The notes under the pieces were generated by a model. That model made no database searches, was not told the origin of the DNA, and was given only the letters and a program-made list of their open reading frames with translations. From IMG/VR virus record IMGVR_UViG_3300051213_000576, positions 1-32,513 of that record: a stretch of 32,513 nucleotides of DNA. One strand, given 5' to 3'. Origin of the DNA: a virus. Lineage: Duplodnaviria > Caudoviricetes. The translations under genes were made by a program, and so were the position numbers. Below, one piece after another: positions 1 through 27,495 of this stretch; the first letter of the stretch is position 1, and the number at the start of each line of letters is the position of its first letter.

Positions 1-127
1 GCGAGTACATCATAGCGGCCTGCGTTCAGCACCTTGACCAAGCGGTCGCGGATTTCTTGCTTTTGTACCGATTTCTCAAAACGCTCGCGCAGGCTTTCTT
101 TGTCCTTGATGACTTTCTTGATATCGA
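1..127. repeat. Terminal direct repeat (circularisation overlap), copy 1
   Basis: Identical to 32387-32513; it falls inside a continuous reading frame. Confidence 0.97.
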
Positions 128-326
128 AAGACACCGTCTTTGTCTGGCGATCCAGTGCCGCAGGGCCATCACTCGGGCCGCTGGTGAATGCCTGTGTGCG
201 ATTGGCGAGTTGAACGCATGCAAGGCGCGCGTAAGCCCTCACGAGCTCGCGCACCGAACGACCGCTGACCTGCTGGTATTTCTCCAGCATGTCCTCGATG
301 TCAGTCGTGTAAGCCGTCATTCCCAT
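1..326 (-). CDS. 5' part of origin-spanning ~283 aa virion morphogenesis protein (neck/tail-completion-like); continues at 32386-31861
   Basis: Manual translation from ATG at 326 (MGMTAYTTDIEDMLEKYQQVSGRSVRELVRAYARLAC...) is open through base 1 and joins the frame of track ORF 31861..32427. Function is inferred from position only. Confidence 0.8.
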   Translation of the reverse strand, partial: MGMTAYTTDIEDMLEKYQQVSGRSVRELVRAYARLACVQLANRTQAFTSGPSDGPAALDRQTKTVSFDIKKVIKDKESLRERFEKSVQKQEIRDRLVKVLNAGRYDVL

Positions 327-551
327 GGTTCAAATTTTGGAAGGCATCTTCAATCAGTTGCAGCGAGTCAAATTCGGAAACTGCCTTGTTTCGCGACCAG
401 ATTCGCGGCCGGTTGTGGGCGTAGTCCTCGGCATGGAGGATCTGCAAGCCTGCCGCGAACGGCAGGTCTTCCATGATCTCGCGGTAGCCCCAGCCAGTGA
501 TCGAGGCGATGCGCCAGGCATAGCCCGCGAGCCAGCCGGGGTTGTTCAGTT
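301..551 (-). CDS. Frameshift extension of tail assembly chaperone (gpGT-like C-terminal part)
   Basis: The -1 frame is open from the slippery site to TGA at 301 (KLNNPGWLAGYAWRIASITGWGYREIMEDLP...); it has no good independent start. Confidence 0.8.
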
Positions 552-944
552 TCCCGAGGATGCGGTGGCGTCTTGATGCTCGCTTGAGCTTGCAAACCAT
601 TCCTCAATGCGCGTGTTCATCATCGAAACGAGTTCTTTGATGTCTGCCGAGGTCGGGTCGTTTTTGTCCATCCAGCGGTCGACGGCTTCGATGAAGGTGT
701 CATGATCGTTGATCACCTTGCGGATCTCGACGCGGGGTGCCTCGTGGATGTAGGCGAAAGCGCAGGCGCGCCACAGAATGTCCATCTCTGGTTGCAACAC
801 TTTGTTGCGCTGCATCCAGCTCACCTCGGTGGCGGCAGTGGTGCGCAGCTCCCAGCGCGCGGCCTTTGCCGGTCCGCTGGTCATGCCCTGCTCACGCAGG
901 ATTTCGTCGTCTTTTACTAGTTCGATTTTGGTATTTTTAGGCAT
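546..944 (-). CDS. Tail assembly chaperone (gpG-like)
   Basis: 132 aa, downstream of the tail tube gene; ends ...TCG GGA AAC TGA. Confidence 0.8.
   Translation of the reverse strand: MPKNTKIELVKDDEILREQGMTSGPAKAARWELRTTAATEVSWMQRNKVLQPEMDILWRACAFAYIHEAPRVEIRKVINDHDTFIEAVDRWMDKNDPTSADIKELVSMMNTRIEEWFASSSEHQDATASSGN
549..555 (-). other. -1 programmed ribosomal frameshift heptamer G GGA AAC
   Basis: X XXY YYZ pattern in the correct phase immediately before the stop codon; compare lambda G-T GGGAAAG. Confidence 0.85.
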
Positions 945-961
945 GGTATTTCGGGGTGGTT

Positions 962-1357
962 TCAGAGAAGGGCGGCGAACTTTTTCCTCGTCTCTTCGGA
1001 GGCGGTTTCGCGGATGGCGATGCGGCGGCCATTGCGCTCGATGACGACATCGCGCGGCGTGTTGCGGATCAGGTCGATGAGCTCGTCGCGGTTGTCCGCG
1101 TAGGCCCGCATGTAGTTGAGCGGGTGCTCTGGATTGCTCTCGGCGAAGAACTCACTGCGCTTGGTGAAGTTCTGGAAATGCTCGAAGGCGCTCTGCCCGT
1201 TGTCCGGGTGCGAGGCCTTGAACCAGAAGACAGTGGTCTCGTTGCCGTCGCTGCGGACTTGCCGCGTGACGGGTGCTTCGTTGAGCTCGAAACCAAGGGT
1301 GACGAGGGCGGTGGCGAGCTTGAGATTGCTCGTGTGAAACAGTTCAATTTGGTCCAT
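962..1357 (-). CDS. Hypothetical protein between tail tube and chaperone
   Basis: 131 aa ORF filling the gap in the late operon on the coding strand. Confidence 0.8.
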   Translation of the reverse strand: MDQIELFHTSNLKLATALVTLGFELNEAPVTRQVRSDGNETTVFWFKASHPDNGQSAFEHFQNFTKRSEFFAESNPEHPLNYMRAYADNRDELIDLIRNTPRDVVIERNGRRIAIRETASEETRKKFAALL

Positions 1358-1364
1358 AATTTGT

Positions 1365-1396
1365 AAAAAAAGAGCTCCCTATTTTGGCCGGGGAGC
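1365..1396 (-). terminator. Intrinsic terminator after tail tube gene
   Basis: AGCTCCC/GGGAGCT stem followed by CTTTTTTT on the - strand. Confidence 0.75.
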
Positions 1397-1426
1397 TGTC
1401 GGCTTTGAGCAGTGAGAGGGCTGCGG

Positions 1427-1804
1427 TTAGACCGGAGCGGTCATGGTGTTCGCGTACTGCGTTGCGCTCACCGAGATGGTCTTGAACTCACCGGCGCTGG
1501 ACTTCTCCTGCACCGAGTTGACGATCACCGTGCCGTCGGCGAGGCCGTACTTGTCGATGTCGTTGGACAGCGTGAGCAGGTTGCCGACTTGCATGGTCGC
1601 GCTGCCGTTGAGCGTGCCTTCAAGGGTGATCTCGGCTTGCTTGCCGGTGATGGCGACGGCGACAACTTCACCTTCCGCGTCACGAAGTTCGGACTTGTTG
1701 GCGGTGACATTGCGCGAAAACGAGCTGAGCAAGATGCCGGTCTCGTTGGTGATACCGAACTCCACAGAAGAGACGGACGATGCTTTGTAGATGGTGGCTG
1801 GCAT
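1427..1804 (-). CDS. Major tail (tube) protein
   Basis: 125 aa from MPATIYK; beta-rich S/T/G composition; lies after the neck genes and is followed by a terminator. Confidence 0.7.
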   Translation of the reverse strand: MPATIYKASSVSSVEFGITNETGILLSSFSRNVTANKSELRDAEGEVVAVAITGKQAEITLEGTLNGSATMQVGNLLTLSNDIDKYGLADGTVIVNSVQEKSSAGEFKTISVSATQYANTMTAPV

Positions 1805-1832
1805 GGGATGTGGGGGTCTCCACATCCGCGCG

Positions 1833-1839
1833 TGTCAAA
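1833..1839 (-). promoter_or_regulatory. TTTGACA late-gene motif
   Basis: Intergenic copy of the recurrent motif, 28 nt before ATG 1804. Confidence 0.6.
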
Positions 1840-1850
1840 TCGCGCTGCGC

Positions 1851-2252
1851 TTACAGCTCGACCATGCCGAGCGTGAGGTTGACCTGCGATAGCCAGCGGT
1901 CATTGCTCTGCGACTCGTTCCAAGTGTTGATCGACGCACCGGCACAGGTGATGCCGACGGGGAAAAAGTTGGCCATCGTCTCGGCGTCGTTGAGTGTGCC
2001 GCGCAGGCTGGTCACAAGGTTGCGGTGATCGGTGAGCGCATCGGCCATGACTGAGGGCGTGCTGACGATCAGCCGCACGCTGGCGACATAGAGCGTCGGT
2101 GCTGGGGTGTTGATGTCTTCGCACGCGACCATGATGAGCGGCTCGTCGTTGGGGATCTCGTCGTCGCTCTGACCGCAGTGGATGGCGATGCCTTCGAAGG
2201 CCTCGAGGTTGGCGAGCCAGTCGCGAACGGATTGTTCGATCTGCAAATTCAT
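1851..2252 (-). CDS. Putative tail terminator / neck protein
   Basis: 133 aa, directly upstream of the tail tube gene; ATGA-type overlap with the previous gene. Confidence 0.6.
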   Translation of the reverse strand: MNLQIEQSVRDWLANLEAFEGIAIHCGQSDDEIPNDEPLIMVACEDINTPAPTLYVASVRLIVSTPSVMADALTDHRNLVTSLRGTLNDAETMANFFPVGITCAGASINTWNESQSNDRWLSQVNLTLGMVEL

Positions 2253-2578
2253 AGGGGCGAAACGGAGCCGGGTTGGATGGTCACGACATGCTCGCCCAGT
2301 GTGCTGATCGGGTCGCGGGTCTCAGTGATGGTGTACTTGCGGCCATTGAATTTGATCTGCTCGCCGCGCGTGGGCGCGCTGGTCAAAGTGGAGGCGAGAA
2401 AGCGCACGGTGTACTCGCCGCCTTGGGCATTGCCGCCGAGCTCGAGCGAGAGTGATAGACGAACCGACGAGATGATCACCTTGATGTCGGCATTGCGGAA
2501 CCGAACCGTGACGCCGTGTGCCTCGTTTTGAACTGCCGCCGATTTGAGGCGGAAGGTATTGATCGCGGCAGGGGTCAT
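2249..2578 (-). CDS. Putative head-tail joining (gpFII-like) protein
   Basis: 109 aa, first gene after the capsid gene; PTRGEQIKFNGRKYTI resembles the head-closure beta-barrel pattern. Confidence 0.6.
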   Translation of the reverse strand: MTPAAINTFRLKSAAVQNEAHGVTVRFRNADIKVIISSVRLSLSLELGGNAQGGEYTVRFLASTLTSAPTRGEQIKFNGRKYTITETRDPISTLGEHVVTIQPGSVSPL

Positions 2579-2594
2579 TCTGAATGCGTGTGCA

Positions 2595-2601
2595 TGTCAA
2601 A
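2595..2601 (-). promoter_or_regulatory. TTTGACA late-gene motif
   Basis: 16 nt before ATG 2578; fused to the U-tract of the capsid terminator. Confidence 0.65.
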
Positions 2602-2636
2602 AAAAACCGCCACTGGGGCTTGAACCCAGTGACGGT
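2599..2636 (-). terminator. Intrinsic terminator after major capsid gene
   Basis: ACCGTCACTGGG-loop-CCCAGTGGCGGT stem followed by a T run on the - strand. Confidence 0.85.
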
Positions 2637-2674
2637 AGGTTTGCTACAACCGAACGAGAACCTTTGGACTAACC

Positions 2675-3535
2675 TCAGGCAGCGGACTTGATGATCGCCA
2701 TCGTGCCGTCGGTGATACCAGCGGCGGCGCCGAACATCACTTCGAGCGAAGCGTTGACTTGGCGGTTGGCGGTCGAGCCCCAGACATTGTACTGAACGCT
2801 CAGACCAAGTTGGTCGAGGGTCACGATGTCGGAGACGGCGAACTGAGCGCGAACTGCGTCGTCGATCGCAGGAGCAGCGGCGGCCATCACGAGAGCTTCC
2901 GGCGCGCAGCCGAAGCCGATCATGTTGGTCTCACCACTGAACTGCGTCGCGTAGTGAACGCCGTTGTCGAAGCCGTAGGCACCTTGACCAAGGCTGAGGC
3001 CGGTGGTCGAAGTTGGGATCAGCTGCGAGTAGATGGTGGGGTTGACGACAAGGCCTTTGCGTGGCGACTTGCTGACAGCGGCCCAGACCTTGGCGATGTC
3101 GCCGGAGGTTGGGGTGATGCCAGTGGCAGCCTTAGTCACAGCAGCGGCACCGAAGTTGGCAACGGTGATCGGCGCAGTGGCGAGAGCCCAAATCTTGTCG
3201 GCGAGTGCGTCGAGCGAGATGCGGATCAGGCGCTCAAGGCGATGACCCGAAGCAAGCTCCGAAGCAGTGATCGCGAAAGGTTGGAAGATGTGGTCGAGAG
3301 TCACCGAAGCTTTGCCCACGGTGGCGCTGCCGCCGGGCTCAAAGTTGGTCGGGTTGACGACAGTTGCGCCAGTCGCAGTGACGAGCGGAACTTGAACGGT
3401 GTCCTTCGCTTTCTTCACATCCGAGCTGAAGTCGGAAGCGAAAAGGTTGAGGGCGGAGAGGCGGTTCGCGAGAACCGTTTGAGCTTGTTGCGCGATGGAA
3501 TCGGCAACAAGAGCGGAGTCGAATGTGTTAGGCAT
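2675..3535 (-). CDS. Major capsid protein
   Basis: 286 aa, directly after the protease/scaffold gene; DFSSDVKKAKDTVQVP N-terminal pattern typical of HK97-fold coats; followed by a terminator. Confidence 0.85.
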   Translation of the reverse strand: MPNTFDSALVADSIAQQAQTVLANRLSALNLFASDFSSDVKKAKDTVQVPLVTATGATVVNPTNFEPGGSATVGKASVTLDHIFQPFAITASELASGHRLERLIRISLDALADKIWALATAPITVANFGAAAVTKAATGITPTSGDIAKVWAAVSKSPRKGLVVNPTIYSQLIPTSTTGLSLGQGAYGFDNGVHYATQFSGETNMIGFGCAPEALVMAAAAPAIDDAVRAQFAVSDIVTLDQLGLSVQYNVWGSTANRQVNASLEVMFGAAAGITDGTMAIIKSAA

Positions 3536-3574
3536 TGCGGTGGGGGTGGTGGGGTTGGTTTGGTTCTCGTTGGC

Positions 3575-4093
3575 TTACGCCTTCGAAAGTTTTTGGCGGT
3601 GGCTCCAGATGGCGGCCTTGTGCTTCTCGAAGAGGGCGGAGGCGGCTTTGCGATCGCCTGACTCGACGGCGGCGAGGTACTCGGCGACGGGGTCGCTGGC
3701 CTCGGGTGCGGAGTTCTCGATCACTGGCACGACGCGCGCGGCGGCGAGGCCAAGCGAACGCTCGAGGTTCGCGAGTGCAGTGCGCTCGGCATCGAGCTCG
3801 GCTTTGACTGTGGTGAGTTCGCTCTCGGCTTTTTCAGCGCGGGCGAGCACGGCGTTGTACTTCGCGACGATCGCGTCGGCGTGTGGCACGGATGCGACCG
3901 GCACTTCCGGCGCAGGTGCTTCTTCTTCGGGTTGAACTTCTTCTTCGGCGGCTTCGGGAGCGGCTTCGATGATCTCTGCGAGAGATGCGGAAGGAGTGGC
4001 TTCGGCGGCCTGCTCTTCAGCGGCCTGCTCTTCGGTGGCTTCGATCACGACCTCTTCGTCGATCTCGGCAGCGGCTTCGAGTTGTGGGTCCAT
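3575..4093 (-). CDS. Probable nested in-frame scaffold protein (Nu3-like), 172 aa
   Basis: In-frame ATG at 4093 (MDPQLEAAAE...) at the protease/acidic-region boundary, 15 nt behind an intragenic TTTGACA motif. Confidence 0.65.
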   Translation of the reverse strand: MDPQLEAAAEIDEEVVIEATEEQAAEEQAAEATPSASLAEIIEAAPEAAEEEVQPEEEAPAPEVPVASVPHADAIVAKYNAVLARAEKAESELTTVKAELDAERTALANLERSLGLAAARVVPVIENSAPEASDPVAEYLAAVESGDRKAASALFEKHKAAIWSHRQKLSKA

Positions 4094-4711
4094 ATCCACG
4101 GACCGCGCTGTCAAATCGGACGGCGCATTGCGGAACTTCGCGAGGCGCGAGAACTTGTTGGTGCTGGCGGCGAGCGCGAGTGAGTCGGTGACTTCGTCGA
4201 CAAAGCCTGCGGCTTGTGCTTCGGTAGCCGTGAACCATGTCTCGGCATCCATCCATGCGGCGATCTGCTCTGGCTCTTGACCGCTCTTCGCCGAATAGGC
4301 GGCGATCATGCCTTCGCGGATTTTCTCAAGCAACGCGGCTTGATCCCGCATCTCCTCGGCATCGCCCATCGCGACGCCCCACGGGTTGTGGATCATGTAG
4401 AATCCATTCGCGGCCATCTTGACCGGCGCGCCTGCGAGGCTGATCACCGTGGCCATCGACGCGGCCAGTCCTTCGATCTCGACGGTGACGCCGCCGGGGT
4501 GACGCTTCAGCGCGTTGAAGATCGCGTTGCCATCGAAGACCTCGCCGCCGGGGCTGTGGATCTTGAGAACGATCTCGTGGTCGGCAGGGACGCGCTTGAG
4601 ATCGGTGATGAACTGCTTGGCAGATACGCCGTAATAACCGATCTCGTCGAAGATGGAGATTTCGGTTTGGCGAACTTCAGCGCGGGCAGATAGGGCATAC
4701 CAGGTCTTCAC
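3575..4711 (-). CDS. ClpP-type prohead protease with C-terminal scaffold region
   Basis: IHSPGG, LAASMA (Ser), MIHNP (His) and AETW...A...GFVD motifs, followed by an acidic/coiled-coil tail. Confidence 0.93.
   Translation of the reverse strand: MKTWYALSARAEVRQTEISIFDEIGYYGVSAKQFITDLKRVPADHEIVLKIHSPGGEVFDGNAIFNALKRHPGGVTVEIEGLAASMATVISLAGAPVKMAANGFYMIHNPWGVAMGDAEEMRDQAALLEKIREGMIAAYSAKSGQEPEQIAAWMDAETWFTATEAQAAGFVDEVTDSLALAASTNKFSRLAKFRNAPSDLTARSVDMDPQLEAAAEIDEEVVIEATEEQAAEEQAAEATPSASLAEIIEAAPEAAEEEVQPEEEAPAPEVPVASVPHADAIVAKYNAVLARAEKAESELTTVKAELDAERTALANLERSLGLAAARVVPVIENSAPEASDPVAEYLAAVESGDRKAASALFEKHKAAIWSHRQKLSKA
4109..4115 (-). promoter_or_regulatory. TTTGACA motif inside clpP gene
   Basis: Same motif and spacing as the intergenic copies. 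Confidence 0.6.
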
Positions 4712-4724
4712 GCCGCAGCGGGCG

Positions 4725-4731
4725 TGTCAAA
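4725..4731 (-). promoter_or_regulatory. TTTGACA late-gene motif
   Basis: 13 nt before GTG 4711. Confidence 0.65.
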
Positions 4732-4734
4732 ATT

Positions 4735-6162
4735 TCAGAGGCTGCCGTCTTGGCTTGGGAAAACCTCACCAACCTCGAGGCCAAGCGCGTCGCATTTCGC
4801 TTTGCGGCGGAGGTAGGTTTGCAGGATGTCGTCTTCCTCGGCTTCGGCATCGAGGCCGTGCAGGTTGCAGTAGCGCTCCCATGACATGTAGCCCTTGTCC
4901 ATCAAGTCGCTGTACAGGCGGCCATCGCGGCCGTTGTCGACGGTGATTTTCTTCGGCGGGATGAACTCGCACCTCCACCAATCGTCGCCGGGGTATGGCA
5001 AGCGACCGGCTTGAATTTCTTGATACAGCCAGAACTTCCAGAACGGACGGCAGAACTGATCGACCAGCATTTGCTGGAGACGCTCGAGGAAATTCTGTGC
5101 GACCTCGAGCAATCCGCGGAACTCGGTGCCACTCGCGCCGACGAAGATCATGAGCGCTTCGGGTGGCAGGCCGATGCCGCGCGCGACCTCGGAGATCACA
5201 TAGCGCACGAACGGCTCGAAGCTCTGGCCGGGGTGTTCGTTCTTGAAGCTCTGGATCGACTCGCCCGGCTTGAGCTTTGGAATGAGCGTGCCGTTGTAGA
5301 GGCGCTCGGTGCTGAGGTCATCGCCTTCGCTGGTGGCGATTTTAGCACCGAGGCCGATCTTGGCCGCTTCGTTGCTGGTGATCGAAAAGCCGATCTGCGC
5401 GCCTGCTTTGAATGCGCCCTTGGTGTAGGAGAGGATTTCCGAAAGGTCTTGCAGGTTGATCGCTGCGTTGTGCAGCCATGACGCGCCGCGTGGGTAGCCT
5501 GCGCGCCGGATGTGGCGGAAGTGGAGCATGTCCTGCGCTGGGACATCGGTGTACTTGCCGTTGGCGCGGTCGGTAATAACGCGGTAGGATAAGGGTGCGC
5601 CGAACTGGTCGAGCAGGACGCCATCGAACGAGCGGTCGGAGGAGTCGGCAGTCGATCCCACCGCCTCGCCGCCTATGAAGCGGACGCGCGCGCCGCCGCT
5701 CTGGGTGGTGAGGAACTGCGCGAAGAAGTCGCCATCGCAGGCGACTTGACGAAGGATGAGAGATTGAGCGCCGTAAAAGTTGACCTGTGAAGATGCGTCG
5801 AATGCCCATGCCTCAGCGCAGGCGCGATCTTCAAACGCGCGCTCGGCCATGCGGTTCCACTCGGCATTCGCGGTGCGGGCCTTCGGGACGATGCCGGTGC
5901 CGACGGCACGCTGGGCAAGGTGCTCGATGAGGTAGGCGGCGACGCCGACATTGTTGTACAGCCAGCGGGCTTTCTTGAGTAGCTCGAGGCGAGTCTGCGC
6001 GGGGAGCTCGCGGCGGGGTTCGACGGTGTTGAGAATGACGAGGCCGCGATTGATGGAATGCTCGGCAGCTTCAAAGGCGGCGGCCTTGGGCGTGGCGTTT
6101 TTCTTCGGGCGTCCGGCTCCGGGGCGCTTGCCACCGCGATTTGATTTTTTGATTTCGCTCAC
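4735..6162 (-). CDS. Portal protein, lambda family
   Basis: ARWLYNN, DGDFF, DGVLLD.FGAP.SY and RG.SWL motifs of lambda-type portals; the GTG start at 6162 avoids overlap with the upstream gene. Confidence 0.92.
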   Translation of the reverse strand: MSEIKKSNRGGKRPGAGRPKKNATPKAAAFEAAEHSINRGLVILNTVEPRRELPAQTRLELLKKARWLYNNVGVAAYLIEHLAQRAVGTGIVPKARTANAEWNRMAERAFEDRACAEAWAFDASSQVNFYGAQSLILRQVACDGDFFAQFLTTQSGGARVRFIGGEAVGSTADSSDRSFDGVLLDQFGAPLSYRVITDRANGKYTDVPAQDMLHFRHIRRAGYPRGASWLHNAAINLQDLSEILSYTKGAFKAGAQIGFSITSNEAAKIGLGAKIATSEGDDLSTERLYNGTLIPKLKPGESIQSFKNEHPGQSFEPFVRYVISEVARGIGLPPEALMIFVGASGTEFRGLLEVAQNFLERLQQMLVDQFCRPFWKFWLYQEIQAGRLPYPGDDWWRCEFIPPKKITVDNGRDGRLYSDLMDKGYMSWERYCNLHGLDAEAEEDDILQTYLRRKAKCDALGLEVGEVFPSQDGSL

Positions 6163-6176
6163 GATTGATTTCGGGG

Positions 6177-6183
6177 TGTCAAA
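6177..6183 (-). promoter_or_regulatory. TTTGACA late-gene motif
   Basis: 14 nt before GTG 6162. Confidence 0.65.
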
Positions 6184-6184
6184 A

Positions 6185-6460
6185 TCAAAGCGGCGATGAG
6201 TAGCGTGAGCGGTCGACGATCGCGGCAAGCTGACGCTCACGGCCTCCGTCGGTGAGCAATTCTTCGATCGCTTGGAGTAGCAGCCACTTGGGGAAACTCA
6301 CCTGCCCCGACGAGCTTGATCCCTCGGTGCCGATGCTGGTTATCACAACCTCCTCAGTGGCGCTGGAAAAGACGGTGTCGGCCAAGGCCTCGAGCTCTTC
6401 GTTGGTCTTGGTCCGGCGCAGGTAGGACTTCACGCCGCTGATTTTCATGGATTCGCTCAC
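6185..6460 (-). CDS. Head completion protein (gpW position)
   Basis: 91 aa between terL and portal, the position of lambda W; helix-hairpin-helix-like pattern. Confidence 0.6.
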   Translation of the reverse strand: MSESMKISGVKSYLRRTKTNEELEALADTVFSSATEEVVITSIGTEGSSSSGQVSFPKWLLLQAIEELLTDGGRERQLAAIVDRSRYSSPL

Positions 6461-6473
6461 GCCGACGGGCGGG

Positions 6474-6480
6474 TGTCAAA
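6474..6480 (-). promoter_or_regulatory. TTTGACA late-gene motif
   Basis: 13 nt before GTG 6460, just behind a terminator. Confidence 0.65.
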
Positions 6481-6487
6481 ATGGCAT

Positions 6488-6520
6488 AAAAAAACCCACC
6501 GGCGTTTCCGCGTGGTGGGT
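6488..6520 (-). terminator. Intrinsic terminator after terL
   Basis: ACCCACC...GGTGGGT stem plus T run on the - strand. Confidence 0.8.
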
Positions 6521-6550
6521 GGTGGGTTTCCGAAATGATATGCAGTCCGA

Positions 6551-8260
6551 TCAGGCGTTTTTCAAAATGTGCCACGCGATGTGGCAGAGTTTGAGCGCAT
6601 CCATAAAGTGATCATCTCGGACATCCTTCCAGACATAGACTTGGCCGCTCGGCGTCTTGCGCGGGACGAGCTTTTGCCCGCTCAGTCCGGCGACGAACTC
6701 GGAGCTGACTTTCTTCGGGATCTTGAGCTCGGGCTTTTGATCCTTGATGCGGTCGATGAAGAGCTCGGTTTTTATGGCGTGGTCCACATAGGTGTAGAGC
6801 ACCACGCCCGGAAAGTTGTCGATCGTGGTGCGGCTGATCCGCGTGCCGAAGGTGACATTCGCGCCCTTTGCTGGGAAATAGAATCCGCCAGACTCTTGGC
6901 AGGTGGCATAGACGCGGAAGGTCGCAAAGCCGGAGTCGATCAGACCGCACTCGGGTTTCACGATACTGCCGTTCGGTGTAGCATAGGACCGCAGTGGCGG
7001 ATCGCGGAGAAGATCCTCGACGGCGAGCGTGGTGCCGTAGTCCAAGACATAGCTTGATCCATCGGCAGCGAAGGCGGTAGTGACCCAGTGCTGCTTCTCC
7101 TGGCCGACATCGGCGCAGGTGACGACATGCGCGGGTTCATCGATCGGGCAGGTGCCGACTTCGTAGGTGCCGGAAAGGCCGAGGATCTTGGCGTCGCCGA
7201 TGCTGGTCTCGACCTGCTCCCACGGCAGGGCCATGGTCGAGTTGGTGAAATCTTGCAGGCCGTTGAGGGTTTCCGAATCGCGCAGGAACTTCACCGCCAG
7301 CGCGCCGAAGGTGCAGGACCGCCATGGGGCGTAGAGTGAATTGAGGTGGAATGAGCGGAAGCCTTTTTGCGCGGACTCATTGGTGCATTGCCATTTCCCC
7401 TGCTGGAGCATTTCCATCTTTTGCCCGTCATTGATCGAGCCTTTGCAGTGTTGGCATTCGTATCGCGCGGATTCTTCGACCTGCGCCATGTTCCATTTGC
7501 CGTCGACCTTGGATTCGCGGTCCCACTTCACCTGCTCCCACAAAAGCTCGATGCGTTCCGCGCAATGCGGGCATGGCAGCATGAATTTTTCCTGCGTGCC
7601 TTTGAGGTACTCTTTCCAGATCGGTCCCTCGGGCGTGGTCGGTGTGGAGGTCTTGACGCGGAGGGCGCCGACGAAACTCTTCGTTCGGTTTTCGGCAAGG
7701 TGCAGGGCGCTGGTTTCCTTGTCGGTCTCAGTGGCGAACTTGTCGACCTCGTCGAGTAGGAGAAGACCGGCGGGGCGGCTGGCGAGGTTGGCCGGTGAGT
7801 TGGACCCGACGAAGACAAGCGAGGATCGGCTGAAGTGTTGCTCGAGGGTTTTGAACTTGTGGCGATCGGCAGGCTTTTGAGCCGAGAGCGTGACGCTGTC
7901 ATCGAACAGCGGCATCCATCGCGTTTCGGAAAATGATCGGGCGAGGCCTTCTGTCGGCATGACCCACACCATCGGCTGCGGCTTGTTGCAGATCCGCCAT
8001 GCGGTCCCGGCTTGGATCATCGTCGTCTTTCCGGTTTGCGTTCCAAAGACCAGCACGACATCCGTGACATCGATGTCGCCGAAGCATTCGAGCGGCTCTC
8101 GCAGGTAGGGCGTCATCGAGACGGAAAATGCGCCAGGCATTTGGGTCTGACGCTCGGAGAGGATCACCTCATCACTGCACCACTGAACGACCGACCGGCG
8201 ATCGATCGGCGCGTAAATCGAACGGATGTGCTCGCGCAGGGCTTCGGCGGCTGGGGTCAT
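6551..8260 (-). CDS. terL: Terminase large subunit, GpA family
   Basis: TPYLREP, Walker A GTQTGKT, Walker B LLLLDEVD, STPT, CPHC...CQHC zinc motif, nuclease IDSG/DHFMD. Start MTPAAE at 8260 overlaps the methylase stop (ATGA). Confidence 0.95.
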   Translation of the reverse strand: MTPAAEALREHIRSIYAPIDRRSVVQWCSDEVILSERQTQMPGAFSVSMTPYLREPLECFGDIDVTDVVLVFGTQTGKTTMIQAGTAWRICNKPQPMVWVMPTEGLARSFSETRWMPLFDDSVTLSAQKPADRHKFKTLEQHFSRSSLVFVGSNSPANLASRPAGLLLLDEVDKFATETDKETSALHLAENRTKSFVGALRVKTSTPTTPEGPIWKEYLKGTQEKFMLPCPHCAERIELLWEQVKWDRESKVDGKWNMAQVEESARYECQHCKGSINDGQKMEMLQQGKWQCTNESAQKGFRSFHLNSLYAPWRSCTFGALAVKFLRDSETLNGLQDFTNSTMALPWEQVETSIGDAKILGLSGTYEVGTCPIDEPAHVVTCADVGQEKQHWVTTAFAADGSSYVLDYGTTLAVEDLLRDPPLRSYATPNGSIVKPECGLIDSGFATFRVYATCQESGGFYFPAKGANVTFGTRISRTTIDNFPGVVLYTYVDHAIKTELFIDRIKDQKPELKIPKKVSSEFVAGLSGQKLVPRKTPSGQVYVWKDVRDDHFMDALKLCHIAWHILKNA

Positions 8261-9729
8261 GCGAGGCGCTTGGGTTCTTTGCCGGTGGCGTCTGCCCATC
8301 GCTGGATCGCCACGGCGACATAGGCGGGGCTGATCTCGATAGCGCGGCATTTGCGGCCTGTATTTTCTGCACCCATTAAGGTCGAGCCACTGCCTCCGAA
8401 AGGCTCCACGCATATTCCGCCCTTGGGCAGACTTGAAAGCATTACGCGCTTCATCATCTCGACGGGTTTCGGCGTGGCGTGCCCGTGGCGTTCTTCTCCA
8501 GTGACTCGCTGGAAACGCCAGGCATCCGTCATGTTGTCGTGTGTGTTGTCGAAGTGTGCGCGTGTTGAATAAAACTCCCGCTTGAGTTCTTCGTGCTCCC
8601 GCTTGAAGGCGTCACCTTTTCCAAAGGATTGGAGTTTTTTGTAAGCCTCTTCAGTAGGAAGGCACCATTGAGATTTCGTGAAATAGTGACCTCCCATTTG
8701 ATTCCCTAGAGCCGCCTTCCAATTTTTTGAGCCTCCACATTTTTCCATTTCATTAGCAAGGTATGCGCGTATCGGCTCCCACCCTTCCCAGTAGTTGTCC
8801 GCGTTGTTATTAAATCCCTGCTCGCCAAGCATAAAGAAAAGGCACCGCTCGGATACGGTTGGAAACATTCGATGATCGGCTGAGCCTATGCCTTGCCCGT
8901 GGCCTTTATCCCACACGATCTCGTTGCGCATCGTTAGGCGCTCGCTGTTTTTTAGCCCTCCGCAATACCACAGCCGCCAGAGGTCTTCAGCGTTCCCCCA
9001 GATGTAGGCGCTTGCGTTATTTTCGGCGTGTGGCCGAAAGGCTCGCCACCATGCCATTTGAAAGGCGTCTAATTCTTCGCGGTAGAGGTTGTCATTTTGC
9101 ACCCCGTCTTTTTCTTTTCCCATTCCATACGGCGGGTCTGCGTGAATGAGTTGCGCCTTCTCTCCGCGCATGAGTTTCGCCACATGCTCGGGGATCGTGC
9201 TATCCCCGCACAGCAACCGATGGTCGCCAAGCTCCCAAAGTTGCCCAGTCTCGACGCCCCACTTTTCGCGGAGTTCGTCGGCTTTGTCGATCTGGGGTTC
9301 TGCGTCGGCGTCTGAGGTTTCGGCCTCGTCTTCCATTTCCATCTCGGCAATGTCTTCAGCGCCGAACCCGATCGCATCGAGGTCAACATCCAGATCGCCA
9401 AGCTCCGCCAGCTCGAGCTTCAGCATTTCCTCGTCCCATCCGCCGCCGATTTCAGCGAGGCGGTTGTCGGCGAGGATGTAGGCGCGGCGCTGGGTGTCGC
9501 TTAAGTGACCGAGGCGGATGCAAGGGACCGACTCGAGGGCGAGCGATTGGGCCGCCATCACGCGGCCATGACCGGCGATGATGCCGTTGTCCTTGTCGAT
9601 CAAGACGGGGTTGTTGAATCCGAACTCGCGGATTGAACCGGCGAGCTTGGAAACCTGCGCGGCGTCGTGCTTCTTAGCATTCCGCGCGTAGGGGATGAGG
9701 TCGGATGTTTTGAGGTGTTCGATTTTCAT
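8257..9729 (-). CDS. ParB-N domain / N4-N6 DNA methyltransferase fusion (beta-class motif order)
   Basis: PYARNAKKH...FGFNNPVLID...IAGHGR...ADNRL (ParB); DPPY precedes HATPKPV and PFGGSGST. Confidence 0.92.
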   Translation of the reverse strand: MKIEHLKTSDLIPYARNAKKHDAAQVSKLAGSIREFGFNNPVLIDKDNGIIAGHGRVMAAQSLALESVPCIRLGHLSDTQRRAYILADNRLAEIGGGWDEEMLKLELAELGDLDVDLDAIGFGAEDIAEMEMEDEAETSDADAEPQIDKADELREKWGVETGQLWELGDHRLLCGDSTIPEHVAKLMRGEKAQLIHADPPYGMGKEKDGVQNDNLYREELDAFQMAWWRAFRPHAENNASAYIWGNAEDLWRLWYCGGLKNSERLTMRNEIVWDKGHGQGIGSADHRMFPTVSERCLFFMLGEQGFNNNADNYWEGWEPIRAYLANEMEKCGGSKNWKAALGNQMGGHYFTKSQWCLPTEEAYKKLQSFGKGDAFKREHEELKREFYSTRAHFDNTHDNMTDAWRFQRVTGEERHGHATPKPVEMMKRVMLSSLPKGGICVEPFGGSGSTLMGAENTGRKCRAIEISPAYVAVAIQRWADATGKEPKRLA

Positions 9730-10334
9730 ATGCTTTGCCTGATGAGCGTGGTGAGATTGTCGATCCATTCAGCGAGCGCGTTTTCAATCGCTTTCTGGGG
9801 TTGGCCGTAGAGCCGAGGGGCGAGCGTCTTGGCTGCGATTTCGAGGGTTTGCTTCACCGCCACATGCGGACGACCGGCGATCTCCTTCGCCTCGTCGAAG
9901 TAGAGCAGAATCCCCTCCGCGCGTTGCCATTCCTTGAAGTCGCGCTCGGCTTTGTGGCGGTTGTTTCTGGCCGCGATGTAAATCGAGTTCGCCTTGCGGA
10001 TGTCCTCGATCGATCCGCCGTTCCGTTTGCAGAGGACCAGCTCGTTGTAGCCGACCTTTTCCGCCAACCTCGCCCGCCGAAGCGACTGGCGCGGGGTGTT
10101 GTCATCGTCGTCAGGCTCGGGTGCGTCATGCGCTGGGGCTGTGACCGGCTGGGGCTTGGCGACCGGCGGCGGGGCGTCCATCACCTTTTTGTTCTTCCGG
10201 GGCTTTGGCTTCGCATTCACCTCACGCCACGCCTGCGCCGCGTCCACCGAAGTGGTCGGCATCCCCTTCTTTACGAGCCGCGAAACGAGACCTTTGTCGA
10301 TCTCGAGGGCTTTGCTCAGTTCCGTAATCCCCAT
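9726..10334 (-). CDS. terS: Terminase small subunit (Nu1-like)
   Basis: N-terminal wHTH (ITELSKALEIDKGLVSRLVKKGMP) plus helical C-terminus; first gene of the packaging module. Confidence 0.75.
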   Translation of the reverse strand: MGITELSKALEIDKGLVSRLVKKGMPTTSVDAAQAWREVNAKPKPRKNKKVMDAPPPVAKPQPVTAPAHDAPEPDDDDNTPRQSLRRARLAEKVGYNELVLCKRNGGSIEDIRKANSIYIAARNNRHKAERDFKEWQRAEGILLYFDEAKEIAGRPHVAVKQTLEIAAKTLAPRLYGQPQKAIENALAEWIDNLTTLIRQSI

Positions 10335-10448
10335 GGCGAAGTCAACAAAGGCTCAAAAGTCAACACACAGACAACTGACGGGAGTGGCCCAACACCAAAT
10401 GAGCGCTCGCGCGTAGGAGACTCCCTAAATTTTTCCGGTCGATCGTTT

Positions 10449-10883
10449 TCATTTCCCGAGAAGTTCGCGGATGCGTTTCGCCTGCTGCTCCATCGGCTCG
10501 AGAAGATCCAACGCTCGTTTGAGTCTGTCGTCATCCCATCGCTCAATCTGTTCTGACATCTTGCGCTGCCAAATAACAAACTTCTGGCTCAGCCCCTCGA
10601 TGGTGACAATCCCTGATGTTTTGTCTTCGGGGTTGAGCGGTCCGGGTTCTGGCTGCGTTAGATCAAGAAATCCAAGGCCAAGCTCGAGCTGCACTTCGGT
10701 CTCTGCCACATAGTCGACGCCCCAGCGATCGGAGGCGAACGAGCGGGATTGGCTCAACCACTTGGCTGCGGACTTCTTACAGATGAGTAAGTTGCGGTGG
10801 ATTTCCGCCCACTGCTCTTGGGTGGTGTCATCTGGAATGCTGATCTGTTTAATCTTCAGAAGGTCAGTGTCGATGATGTTCAT
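10449..10883 (-). CDS. Hypothetical protein
   Basis: 144 aa ORF in operon orientation. Confidence 0.8.
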   Translation of the reverse strand: MNIIDTDLLKIKQISIPDDTTQEQWAEIHRNLLICKKSAAKWLSQSRSFASDRWGVDYVAETEVQLELGLGFLDLTQPEPGPLNPEDKTSGIVTIEGLSQKFVIWQRKMSEQIERWDDDRLKRALDLLEPMEQQAKRIRELLGK

Positions 10884-10892
10884 GTCTGTGTA

Positions 10893-11384
10893 TTATTTCT
10901 GTTTGCGCAGTTTAGCGCGGATTTCCTTTATCACTTTTTCCTTTGCTATTGTGTGCTTGTCGGTGGCTTTTGCTTTGTAGGTCTCACGGGTTGAGTTGGC
11001 TTTGCGGTACTTGGTGTAATCGAAATTGTTTATCTCATCACTCAGCATGTCGCGGAAGGCTATGACATAGTGACTGATAAGAGCGCGCGTACATCCGATT
11101 TCGCGCGCGACTTCTGCCTGTGATCTTTTTCCGTTAAGTTGGTCTAGGCCTGTTGCAAAAGCCAACGCATGCACACATGCCTTCATGTTTTTTGAATCCA
11201 GCAAGATGCCTATGAGTTTGGCCGAGAGAAGCGATTGGTTCCTGATGACCGCATCCTCCCGCATGCGGATGATCTTGCGGGCTGTGAATAGGCTGACACC
11301 GAGGTCATCCGCGATGATCTCCTCCTCGGTGTCGATGAGGGCGGCCATGTCGGGCGTATAGCTCGCTTGATTTTCGTGCAGCAT
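10893..11384 (-). CDS. HTH protein, sigma-70 region 4-like; candidate late regulator
   Basis: SQAEVAREIGCTRALISHYV HTH; located between the replication and packaging modules. Confidence 0.65.
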   Translation of the reverse strand: MLHENQASYTPDMAALIDTEEEIIADDLGVSLFTARKIIRMREDAVIRNQSLLSAKLIGILLDSKNMKACVHALAFATGLDQLNGKRSQAEVAREIGCTRALISHYVIAFRDMLSDEINNFDYTKYRKANSTRETYKAKATDKHTIAKEKVIKEIRAKLRKQK

Positions 11385-11438
11385 TCACATCCCATTTGTG
11401 GGGTTCGTTTGTAATCCGCAAAAGATTTCATCCTATTT

Positions 11439-12374
11439 TCACATTTTCTGTTTTTTGATAGGATCGCCAAAAACTTCGGCGAGTTCCTCGCGGCTGATGG
11501 TTGGCCTTGATGACACCGGCATCGGTATCGTGTTCGGCGGTGGGCGTGATGCCTCTTGCTTCCTCCTCCAAGCTGATGCGTGAGTCCACACATCGGATGG
11601 GTTCTCGAGGAACTTTGTCCGGCTTCGCGGTTGCCATGCTGGGACACCATTCGGGATCTTGGCGTAAAGGTAATCCTTCATCGTTTGCCATTGGGCCGCT
11701 GTTAGCTCAGAAAGGCATCGTGACGCCGCTGCGAGAAGTTTTTGCTCCGTGTATGCCAAAGGCAACTCCCAGCCGCTCCTGAGCGATCTGACGCGCTTTT
11801 CAAGATCGAGCATCGATTGGGCGTTTGCGGTGGGCATGTTGTCCTCGTAAAAATCCTCCGCGCTCTCGCTCGCATCCCCTTGGGGGGTAGGGGGGAGAGT
11901 TCCATTCCTTTCCTCTTCCTTTCCTTTCCTTTCCGTTAGGTTTTCGCTTAGGTTTCGCTTAGGTTCCGCTTTGGTTTCCGCTTTGGTTTCCGCTTTGGTT
12001 TTGGGCCTTCCGCCCATTGCGCCATTGGCTTTGACCGCCGCGATTTTCGCTTCACTCCTAGCTTTTCCACCCTTTGATCCGCTCTCCCGGTTGCGTTGTA
12101 CCTCCTCTTCTTTTTCCTTCGGGTATCCGAAAATCACGAGGCTTTCTCCGTCGAATTTCCACAGCTCGCAGTCGTCGTCGATCTCAGCCTTGGTGACGCC
12201 GCAGGTTTGTTGCCAGCGGCGATCCTTCCATGACGCGCACTCTGGAATCGTTCCTCCGTTCTCCTGCTCGGCGCAGTAGACCATCAGGTTGAGCCAGGTG
12301 GCGCGTTGGATCGGATCGCAGCCGACATATTCTGGCCGCCGGATGATGTTAGTTTGCAGGTTCAGCCAGTTCAT
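11439..12374 (-). CDS. Replication initiator (lambda O-like organisation)
   Basis: N-terminal wHTH-like region, NG..GGRPK motif, internal DNA repeats, KGKEEE...PPTP linker. Confidence 0.75.
   Translation of the reverse strand: MNWLNLQTNIIRRPEYVGCDPIQRATWLNLMVYCAEQENGGTIPECASWKDRRWQQTCGVTKAEIDDDCELWKFDGESLVIFGYPKEKEEEVQRNRESGSKGGKARSEAKIAAVKANGAMGGRPKTKAETKAETKAEPKRNLSENLTERKGKEEERNGTLPPTPQGDASESAEDFYEDNMPTANAQSMLDLEKRVRSLRSGWELPLAYTEQKLLAAASRCLSELTAAQWQTMKDYLYAKIPNGVPAWQPRSRTKFLENPSDVWTHASAWRRKQEASRPPPNTIPMPVSSRPTISREELAEVFGDPIKKQKM
11937..12002. repeat. Iteron-like tandem repeats (putative replication origin)
   Basis: Five to six 11-12 bp units: taggttttcgct, taggtttcgct, taggttccgct, ttggtttccgct x2. 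Confidence 0.7.
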
Positions 12375-12380
12375 TTTGGA

Positions 12381-12683
12381 TCAGAATGGGATGTCGTCTT
12401 CCTCGTCGAGTGAACCACCGGCTTGGCCTTGGTATGGCATCGGTGCGCGCTCTTGCCTTTGCGGGGCGGCTGGGCGTTGCTGATAGCCGTCTTGCTGCTT
12501 CGGCTCGTAGAAAGCGATCCAGCCAGTCCAATCGGGGTTAGTAGGAAGGGCATCGAGCTTGAGCGCCATGCGCCCGTCGTTGCCTTCCATCACCGCTCCG
12601 ACGGTGAGGTATCGCTTTTTCTTTTCGCCTTGTTTGTTGGTGTACTCGCCGATGGTGGCGACTGCGTCGTATCGTTTGGTCAT
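12381..12683 (-). CDS. Single-stranded DNA-binding protein-like
   Basis: 100 aa from MTKRYDAV; Q/P linker and acidic DEEDDIPF tail. Confidence 0.75.
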   Translation of the reverse strand: MTKRYDAVATIGEYTNKQGEKKKRYLTVGAVMEGNDGRMALKLDALPTNPDWTGWIAFYEPKQQDGYQQRPAAPQRQERAPMPYQGQAGGSLDEEDDIPF

Positions 12684-23853: not shown

Positions 23854-23860
23854 CGTCAAA
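23854..23860 (-). promoter_or_regulatory. TTTGACG variant of late-gene motif
   Basis: 16 nt before ATG 23837; contains the endolysin stop codon. Confidence 0.45.
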
Positions 23861-24419
23861 CGATCGGGCCATCGCAGAGGATGTAGTCGAAGCCCTTTTG
23901 ATTCGCTTTCTTCATCTCGCTGCGGGTGAGCAGATAGAATGCGTTCCATTGATCCGGCGGGATCGTCTGGCATCCGAGTGAGCTGGTTGTAGTGTGGCCG
24001 CCGCGATGGATGTTGATCGCTACACCTTGCTTGATCCCTTCCTGGCCGTCGCGCATGACCGGCAGAACTTCGCCTTTAGTGTTCGGGCGGAAGGCAGGAT
24101 AGCCGCCGCCTGGCTTCGAGATGCCGTGGTTGCCGGGTTTGTATGGGTGAACGCCGGAGATCAGCGATGCGACGCCAGGACGATAGCGGCTCGGGTCGGT
24201 GTTGGCGTTGAAGGCGGCAAAGGTTTCGGGGCCGACCACGAAGATCGCGTCATCGTAAATCCCACGATCGTTCTTGCCCTTTACCCCCATCGTGTCGCGG
24301 TAGTAGCCACGGATGCCGACCACGAACATCGGCGGTAGCAGCTCATCGGGGTAGGCGCGAACCCACACTTTGACCGCTGCGGCCATGACCGCAAACTGAG
24401 ATGCTCGCGGCTTGTTCAT
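23856..24419 (-). CDS. Putative endolysin with YkuD/L,D-transpeptidase-type catalytic motif
   Basis: INIHRGG...SSLGCQTI His/Cys motif; follows the membrane-protein genes. Confidence 0.7.
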   Translation of the reverse strand: MNKPRASQFAVMAAAVKVWVRAYPDELLPPMFVVGIRGYYRDTMGVKGKNDRGIYDDAIFVVGPETFAAFNANTDPSRYRPGVASLISGVHPYKPGNHGISKPGGGYPAFRPNTKGEVLPVMRDGQEGIKQGVAINIHRGGHTTTSSLGCQTIPPDQWNAFYLLTRSEMKKANQKGFDYILCDGPIV

Positions 24420-27474: not shown

Positions 27475-27488
27475 CAATCCCAGCGGTT

Positions 27489-27495
27489 TGTCAAA
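27489..27495 (-). promoter_or_regulatory. TTTGACA late-gene motif
   Basis: 14 nt before ATG 27474. Confidence 0.65.

Follow-up and report, generated by a model that had tools for sequence, protein, structure and literature searches.

The stretch analyzed here, referred to as the window, is the virus record IMGVR_UViG_3300051213_000576 over its full length of 32,513 nucleotides, a circular phage genome of 32.4 kb with a 127-nt terminal repeat. It encodes an integrase, RecT/exonuclease, a replication initiator, a lambda-type terminase and portal, a ClpP-like protease and a tape measure protein, and this lambdoid phage likely has a Verrucomicrobiota host. Near-identical copies are binned in a metagenome-assembled genome of the Verrucomicrobiota, a 248-kb contig of a genome from the same phylum (G072) carries a distant relative as a prophage, and among cultured phages the portal matches Akkermansia phage Moulinsart with the best E-value (4e-27); homologues carry the taxon labels Verrucomicrobia (n = 3) and Burkholderiaceae (n = 1). 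We studied the heptamer TTTGACA, hereafter the box, which recurs shortly before late genes and which a sequence-only reading of the window had proposed to be a single-element late promoter. The gene labels of that reading held for portal, ClpP and head-tail genes (the last weakly, E 0.002), while those for the gpW, tail-tube, scaffold, fibre-module and HExxH genes come only from position or a sequence motif.

The window contains seven copies of TTTGACA, all on the minus strand and each at precisely the position given by the sequence-only reading. On this strand the box precedes the start codon by 13 nt at the gpW-position gene (box 6474..6480, GTG 6460), 14 nt at the portal gene (6177..6183, GTG 6162), 13 nt at the gene of the ClpP-like protease (4725..4731, GTG 4711), 15 nt at the internal scaffold gene, where the box is located within the clpP coding sequence (4109..4115, ATG 4093), 16 nt at the head-tail gene (2595..2601, ATG 2578), 14 nt at the fibre-module gene (27489..27495, ATG 27474) and 28 nt at the tail-tube gene (1833..1839, ATG 1804). 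A plausible variant, TTTGACG (23854..23860, minus strand), lies 16 nt before the ATG (23837) of the HExxH gene, with a TGA that also terminates the gene ahead of it (23856-24419); among relatives, L314 has TTTGACG there (16 nt), and L315 and L316 have TTTGACT (14 nt). A further variant, GTTGACT (10358..10364, minus strand), is possible but uncertain; it is 23 nt from the ATG of the small terminase (10334), and in relatives TTTGACA is present 13-22 nt before the gene at the small-terminase position.

The number of copies alone is not above chance, as seven were reached in 6 of 100 shuffles, but six of the seven are located 13-16 nt from a gene start, for which about 0.0065 is expected per site (binomial p 5e-13). 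TTTGAC[AG] precedes 8 of 29 late and 0 of 24 early gene starts (Fisher p 0.006; the starts counted were our own choice). The observation of the sequence-only reading that the spacers lack TATAAT and a Shine-Dalgarno sequence was likewise reproduced: no sigma-70-like promoter was found in window positions 1-12500, and the window spacers between box and start contain no Shine-Dalgarno sequence.

To place these sites in a wider context, we collected 247 portal-bearing loci in five portal scans, four over viral and metagenome contigs and one over genomes. These form 39 clusters at 90% portal identity, with portals 36-100% like that of the window, and one representative of each was used (549 kb). 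They represent a family of freshwater phages whose hosts are likely Verrucomicrobia. The representatives hold 223 copies of TTTGACA on the late strand versus 5 on the opposite strand. Open reading frames (ORFs) start 13, 14 or 15 nt after the box at 81, 44 and 22 of 222 scorable sites, respectively, with 16 in total at 0-12 nt, and five control words showed no distance peak to ORF starts in the same representatives. Counted by cluster, TTGAC[AT] precedes the portal gene in 36/36 (at 13-15 nt), the gpW-position gene in 29/29 (in one, the automatically called start is 8 nt from the box and the next ATG at 14 nt), the head-tail gene in 22/22 (13-16 nt), clpP in 19/30, the tube gene in 16/18 (15 of them at 27-50 nt) and the capsid gene in 6/20; it is absent before the tail terminator (0/21) and the chaperones (0/18 and 0/17) in the clusters scored. 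The boxed capsid genes are of a second type (6/6 of those scored, at 24-26% identity), and the type found in the window is unboxed. In all 20 further records the copies are concentrated on one strand (5-12, versus 0-2 on the opposite one). The genes preceded by a box in 12 near-complete genomes encode packaging, head, tail, fibre, holin-like and phosphoesterase proteins; no labelled early gene was found behind a box, and some boxes are not followed by an ORF at all. Such boxes, with a pyrimidine-purine (YR) step as described below and no long ORF directly behind, were seen between the capsid and head-tail genes in L213 (position 6287) and L075 (5355 and 5513), and are possibly starts of small RNAs or small proteins.

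The copy within clpP is present in 29/29 full-length clpP genes, and is read as TTT-GAC-A in 19 and as TTG-ACA in 10 of them. As the same codon pairs are rarely written this way elsewhere (TTTGAC at 10 of 175 other Phe-Asp pairs, TTGACA at 1 of 212 other Leu-Thr pairs), its retention in two reading frames indicates that selection acts on the nucleotides. No second element was detected upstream (information no higher than 0.15 bit between -45 and -1), Rfam gave 0 matches, and no description of a TTTGACA late motif was found in the literature searched, which excluded most subscription papers and all supplements.

The distance that is held constant runs to a YR step. This step is present at +13/14 or +14/15 of the box in 103 of 106 sites with the start codon at 13-14 nt, in 32/37 at 15-19 nt, in 11/13 at 20-25 nt and in 27 of the 30 unique sites at 26-69 nt, against a background of 0.41-0.57 overall and 0.42 for the last class; related sites are not independent, so that p-values for these counts overstate the significance. 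A YR step is a general signature of transcription start sites, and in Akkermansia about 10% of starts are leaderless, according to the accessible part of the text (PMC4782308). Because the step stays at 13-14 nt even where the ATG is 26-69 nt away, the word likely fixes the transcription start and not a ribosome site. In the 30 leadered sites the sequence switches at +14 from GC-rich to A/C-rich, typically GAAACCC or GTAACCC, with A rising from 0.25 to 0.43 and G falling from 0.14 to 0.05 beyond this point. Taking the YR step as +1, 94 of 175 sites would be leaderless, 38 would have leaders of 1-4 nt and most others of 5-38 nt. The clpP genes without a box (n = 11) have an A/C-rich leader in which the G fraction is 0.04 versus 0.34, as expected if their translation starts internally on a longer mRNA.

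Based on these sequence patterns, TTTGACA is probably the one core element on which a compact late promoter is built; this promoter is predicted to start transcription 13-14 nt downstream and likely depends on a 163-aa helix-turn-helix (HTH) protein encoded at 10893..11384 on the minus strand. Single-element promoters acting gene by gene and giving leaderless or short-leadered mRNAs, as the sequence-only reading had suggested, are consistent with every test run, including those for the YR step and for later start codons. If the YR step marks the transcription start, the box would occupy about -20 to -14. The gpW, portal, clpP and head-tail mRNAs would then be leaderless or carry 1-4 nt, with window starts predicted at 6460 and 6162 (both leaderless), 4711 and 2581 (the last with a 3-nt leader), while tube, some capsid and fibre mRNAs would have A/C-rich leaders of 13-38 nt; in the window the tube start is predicted near 1819 and the fibre-module start at 27475. 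Unboxed genes would be co-transcribed behind a boxed gene, and the transcript from the 4109 box, predicted to begin at about 4095, would also carry the major capsid gene. The HTH protein, more tentatively, may cooperate with the host sigma-A holoenzyme.

The HTH protein is a candidate late activator on account of its predicted fold (pLDDT 81.5, with the HTH at residues 89-114) and its co-occurrence with the box. The fold resembles sigma region 4, TFIIB and others, all below significance; the sigma-4-like matches over residues 53-119, the one feature that would point to a phage-encoded sigma factor as in late promoters of the T4 gp55 type, are weak (Z 4.7 or less), as is that to the AlpA complex (7xyb_G; Z 4.5, root-mean-square deviation 6.4, 91 aligned), and the NCBIfam matches are below cut-off. 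No PHROG or Pfam match was obtained, and sequence, family and fold searches gave no family name. The family comprises 296 clusters at 50% identity. Homologues are encoded in 12/12 near-complete genomes, even though the replication modules differ, with a weak match in G152 (E 1.6e-4, by iterated profile only), and this is the only non-virion family found in all 12. Selecting loci by the HTH protein instead of the portal returned 80, of which 59 are outside the close kin of the window and 25 of those have at least 4 kb downstream. In all 25 the box is present at 13-17 nt, also in four whose terminase is only 23-26% like that of the window, and 406 kb upstream of the HTH gene hold 9 copies of TTTGACA, 1 of them at such a start. 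The cultured phages P8625 and Moulinsart have neither the HTH family nor the box geometry. The G072 prophage encodes a distant homologue and has only two TTGACA sites at 12-15 nt, so that the link between protein and box weakens at that distance; loci for distant family members were sought and none was found. The recognition helix mostly follows T-R-A/S-x-x-S, and SKQLLD in G157 and G173 accompanies the same box. Among phages with portals at least 90% identical (the window compared with L018, L091 and L144) the HTH gene has been exchanged, including for a version with a different recognition helix.

Several observations weigh against a compact promoter served by this protein. The spacer is 72% GC, and the melting of a GC-rich -12 to -1 region is not explained by the model; the PafBC, Lalka27a and 21Q promoters all retain a -10 element, as far as the available portions of their descriptions show. 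G is strong at -3/-2 before leaderless starts (0.67 and 0.78) and not before leadered ones (0.21 and 0.36), a pattern for which a pure promoter model has no account. No YR step is found at the window sites 4109 and 1833. There is read-through as well, since in 4 of 18 clusters the gene for the tail chaperone lies behind a terminator-like hairpin and has no box. With respect to the HTH protein, no structural match was significant (best Foldseek E 0.35; best VIA Z 4.8), its co-occurrence with the box partly reflects kinship, and its standing as the only universal family is favoured by the use of an iterated profile for this family versus BLAST clustering for the others. Its recognition helix also varies (TRAL, TRSL, TRAN, TKAA, SKQL).

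This helix variation bears on the identity of the reader. The box contains the exact sigma-70 -35 consensus TTGACA, and region 4.2 of host sigma-A is canonical in 26/26 full-score copies; together, these lead us to a slight preference for host sigma-A region 4 reading TTGACA, shifted 16-17 bp toward the start, over direct reading by the HTH protein. An ordinary bacterial polymerase alone would not be expected to read this layout. In a more specific and rather doubtful form of the proposal, the phage protein would remodel sigma-A so that region 4 binds TTGACA 16-17 bp nearer the start with no -10 element, a spacer-less promoter class used family-wide for leaderless late mRNAs and an initiation counterpart of the lambda Q-compacted sigma.

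An ordinary -35 hexamer with starts about 30 nt downstream, or a sigma-dependent pause or loading site with a role in elongation only, would also account for the exact consensus. Phage P8625 does use TTGACA at 30 nt, and lambda Q needs a -35-like site (PMC6606751, in the part accessible). However, over offsets 1 to 26 TAnnnT never occurs at more than 3 of the 206 sites (1 at offset 16 and 0 at offsets 2, 17, 18 and 19), and none of 35 portal genes offers another in-frame start further down ahead of the conserved GG.R..AGR motif, which argues indirectly against a start about 30 nt downstream with the true codon further in. Each record has 5-12 sense copies located at gene starts, unlike one loading site and unlike the one late promoter with a Q-binding element ahead of a lambdoid operon, and this explanation is the least probable of those considered. 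Sigma-54 promoters combine GG at -24 with GC at -12, at a spacing of 11 bp; no GC conservation is seen at +9/+10 after the word, and such a start would lie inside the gene.

Two explanations place the function of the word in RNA. In the first, a form of the RNA-level translational signal that the sequence-only reading offered as its alternative, the word would direct translation initiation on a single long late transcript, either in place of a Shine-Dalgarno sequence or as the binding site of a protein. This would fit the tight link to start codons, the window spacers devoid of Shine-Dalgarno sequences, the G-rich -3/-2 confined to short-spaced starts and the frequent GTG there (49 of 80 at 13 nt). 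This is disfavoured and in our view quite improbable, since the fixed distance runs to the YR step rather than to the codon in the 26-69 nt class, the most heavily translated genes, those of the capsid, have no such word in 14 of 20 cases, and TTTGACA is rare in host genomes (about 3 per Mb versus about 230 per Mb in the phages). Moreover, host 16S 3' ends are canonical and contain no complement of the word (2/2), and the distances are 13-52 nt, not 3-10. Shine-Dalgarno-like 4-mers are present in 22 of 104 spacers across the family, versus a shuffle mean of 10, and 22 of 26 end 1-3 nt from the codon. Alternatively, the word could direct cleavage of the RNA 13-14 nt further on; leaderless pieces would then arise by processing of an antiterminated late transcript, with the HTH protein acting as a Q-like antiterminator. 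Fixed distance, strand bias and missing -10 element would all follow, read-through of terminators does occur, and the HTH gene is at the position of lambdoid Q genes with the AlpA complex among its weak fold matches. We nevertheless consider processing unlikely: a YR step with A/G at +1 is a signature of initiation (PMC4782308, accessible part), no nuclease gene common to all 12 near-complete genomes was seen, and in G166 an inverted phosphoesterase cassette carries the box at 13 nt without an upstream late transcript, with no labelled gene ahead of it on its strand within 2.5 kb and a terminator-like hairpin in front.

For the compact promoter, the arrangement of terminators is relevant to whether transcription is gene by gene. 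An intrinsic terminator follows the capsid gene at 2606..2636 (minus strand; scan and fold, z -4.6; 12/22 clusters), with its T run overlapping the head-tail box, and a terminator-like hairpin with T run is predicted by folding just upstream of the gpW box at 6495..6519 (minus strand; unlisted in the terminator scan; 6/27 clusters). Overall, such hairpins are located ahead of 19 of 126 boxed versus 5 of 120 unboxed starts. Another follows the tail tube (1373-1397, minus strand); the next gene has no box, and read-through must therefore supply the distal tail genes. The contrast drawn by the sequence-only reading between gene-by-gene expression and one antiterminated operon thus stands in part: the 5-12 boxes per record at gene starts agree with it, but most late genes are unboxed, one of them behind a terminator-like hairpin.

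We also considered a hairpin that hides the start codon as a general function, as four window sites fold in this way, and rejected it. In the family, no covariation was seen between base +1 and the start codon (Fisher p 1.0 for C vs T), pairing of the arms is not above permutation (p 0.43), and start-codon pairing equals that of shuffled spacer and motif controls (0.58 vs 0.58; 0.57 vs 0.57). Local fold energy at box sites is slightly better than in the control (-5.0 vs -3.9 kcal/mol, p 1e-4). An 8-bp hairpin straddling the predicted tube start (1806..1827, minus strand) would form only on read-through RNA and is not general in the family.

The box was compared with known late-promoter systems. 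Late promoters of phage P1 have their box at -22, between -35 and -10, and retain the -10 hexamer. As here, there are several in a temperate phage; they depend on a phage-encoded DNA-binding activator, Lpa, with SspA (PMC1891329, accessible part), a role for which the HTH protein is the candidate in the window. Family and fold searches found no homology to Lpa. In the lambda Q complex, work by Nickels in 2002 is said to have placed the -35-like hexamer 1 bp from a -10-like element. By analogy, such a gap would give 1 + 6 + 6/7 = 13-14 nt, matching the box distance. At PR' the phage protein stabilizes sigma region 4 on a displaced -35-like hexamer (PMC6606751, accessible part), as may happen at the box, but the complex forms once, in early elongation, and needs a -10-like sequence, whereas here there are many sites, apparently used at initiation, and no such sequence. 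In mycobacterial PafBC (-26 element) and T4 MotA/AsiA an HTH activator lets the housekeeping holoenzyme use an off-position upstream box (PMC8635444 and PMC7403470, accessible parts), as proposed for the window; these promoters combine a canonical -10 with a box unlike TTGACA at -26 to -30, in contrast to a -35 consensus at about -20 to -14 with no -10 found. Thermus phage Lalka27a shares dense gene-by-gene late promoters, mostly leaderless, with a proposed phage factor and no lambda-like antitermination in the part of the preprint available (bioRxiv 10.64898/2026.04.20.719267), but the element it uses is a -10, TAGGGT, with six bp to the start. The start-associated sequence (SAS) of cluster K mycobacteriophages is also an asymmetric word repeated before start codons, its function untested; it differs in being 3-7 bp from the codon, containing the Shine-Dalgarno core and marking non-structural genes (PMC3203893, accessible part). 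The activator-dependent promoters compared here all keep a -10 for DNA melting, as far as these sources were available. The box would work like those of P1 Lpa, T4 MotA, PafBC and Lalka27a but lacks the -10 that defines them, and is therefore not a member of that class. If the promoter reading is true, one -35-consensus box 13-14 nt from the start would need a new holoenzyme geometry or melting route, and its candidate factor is a single 163-aa protein amenable to in vitro testing. As a rule of annotation, the box helps to identify true start codons and internal scaffold genes in a family of phages abundant in fresh water, and it is a possible orthogonal switch for Verrucomicrobia.

The Verrucomicrobia phage P8625 (NC_029047; L322) has the same head-gene order, with TTGACA before the gene ahead of the portal and before three other genes. 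Here, TTGACA is exactly 30 nt, the canonical distance, before the four ATGs, the spacer contains a palindrome, and no HTH-family gene is present; the box-to-start distance in the window family is shorter by 16-17 nt, the length of a canonical spacer. The palindrome, resembling GTATC-N8-GATAC, covers the -10 region before 5448, 10772 and 15594, and these sites, in a cultured phage-host pair, are likely operator-controlled leaderless promoters; the accessible part of the P8625 paper (PMC4642752) has no passage on promoters. Moulinsart (L054) has a purine-rich word, AAAGAGA..GG..GG, upstream of several late genes (505, 2808, 4684, 10632 and 15339), which is possibly its own late signal.

As a general host signal the box geometry was rejected: five genomes of the phylum, 18.9 Mb in total, yielded 52 matches, 13 of which belong to one repeat, versus 20 at control spacing; a two-fold excess over control spacing remains without explanation after the repeat is removed. 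In G007, an identical 24-nt word starting with TTTGACA is found at 13 places and probably represents the ends of insertion sequences. At 546-600 of the window (minus strand), the second chaperone ORF ends in GGGAAAC beside the overlapping ORF 301-600, an arrangement resembling that of tail-chaperone frameshifts. Finally, two interchangeable types of the ClpP and capsid genes (window 3575-4711 and 2675-3535, versus those of relatives) are found with similar portals.

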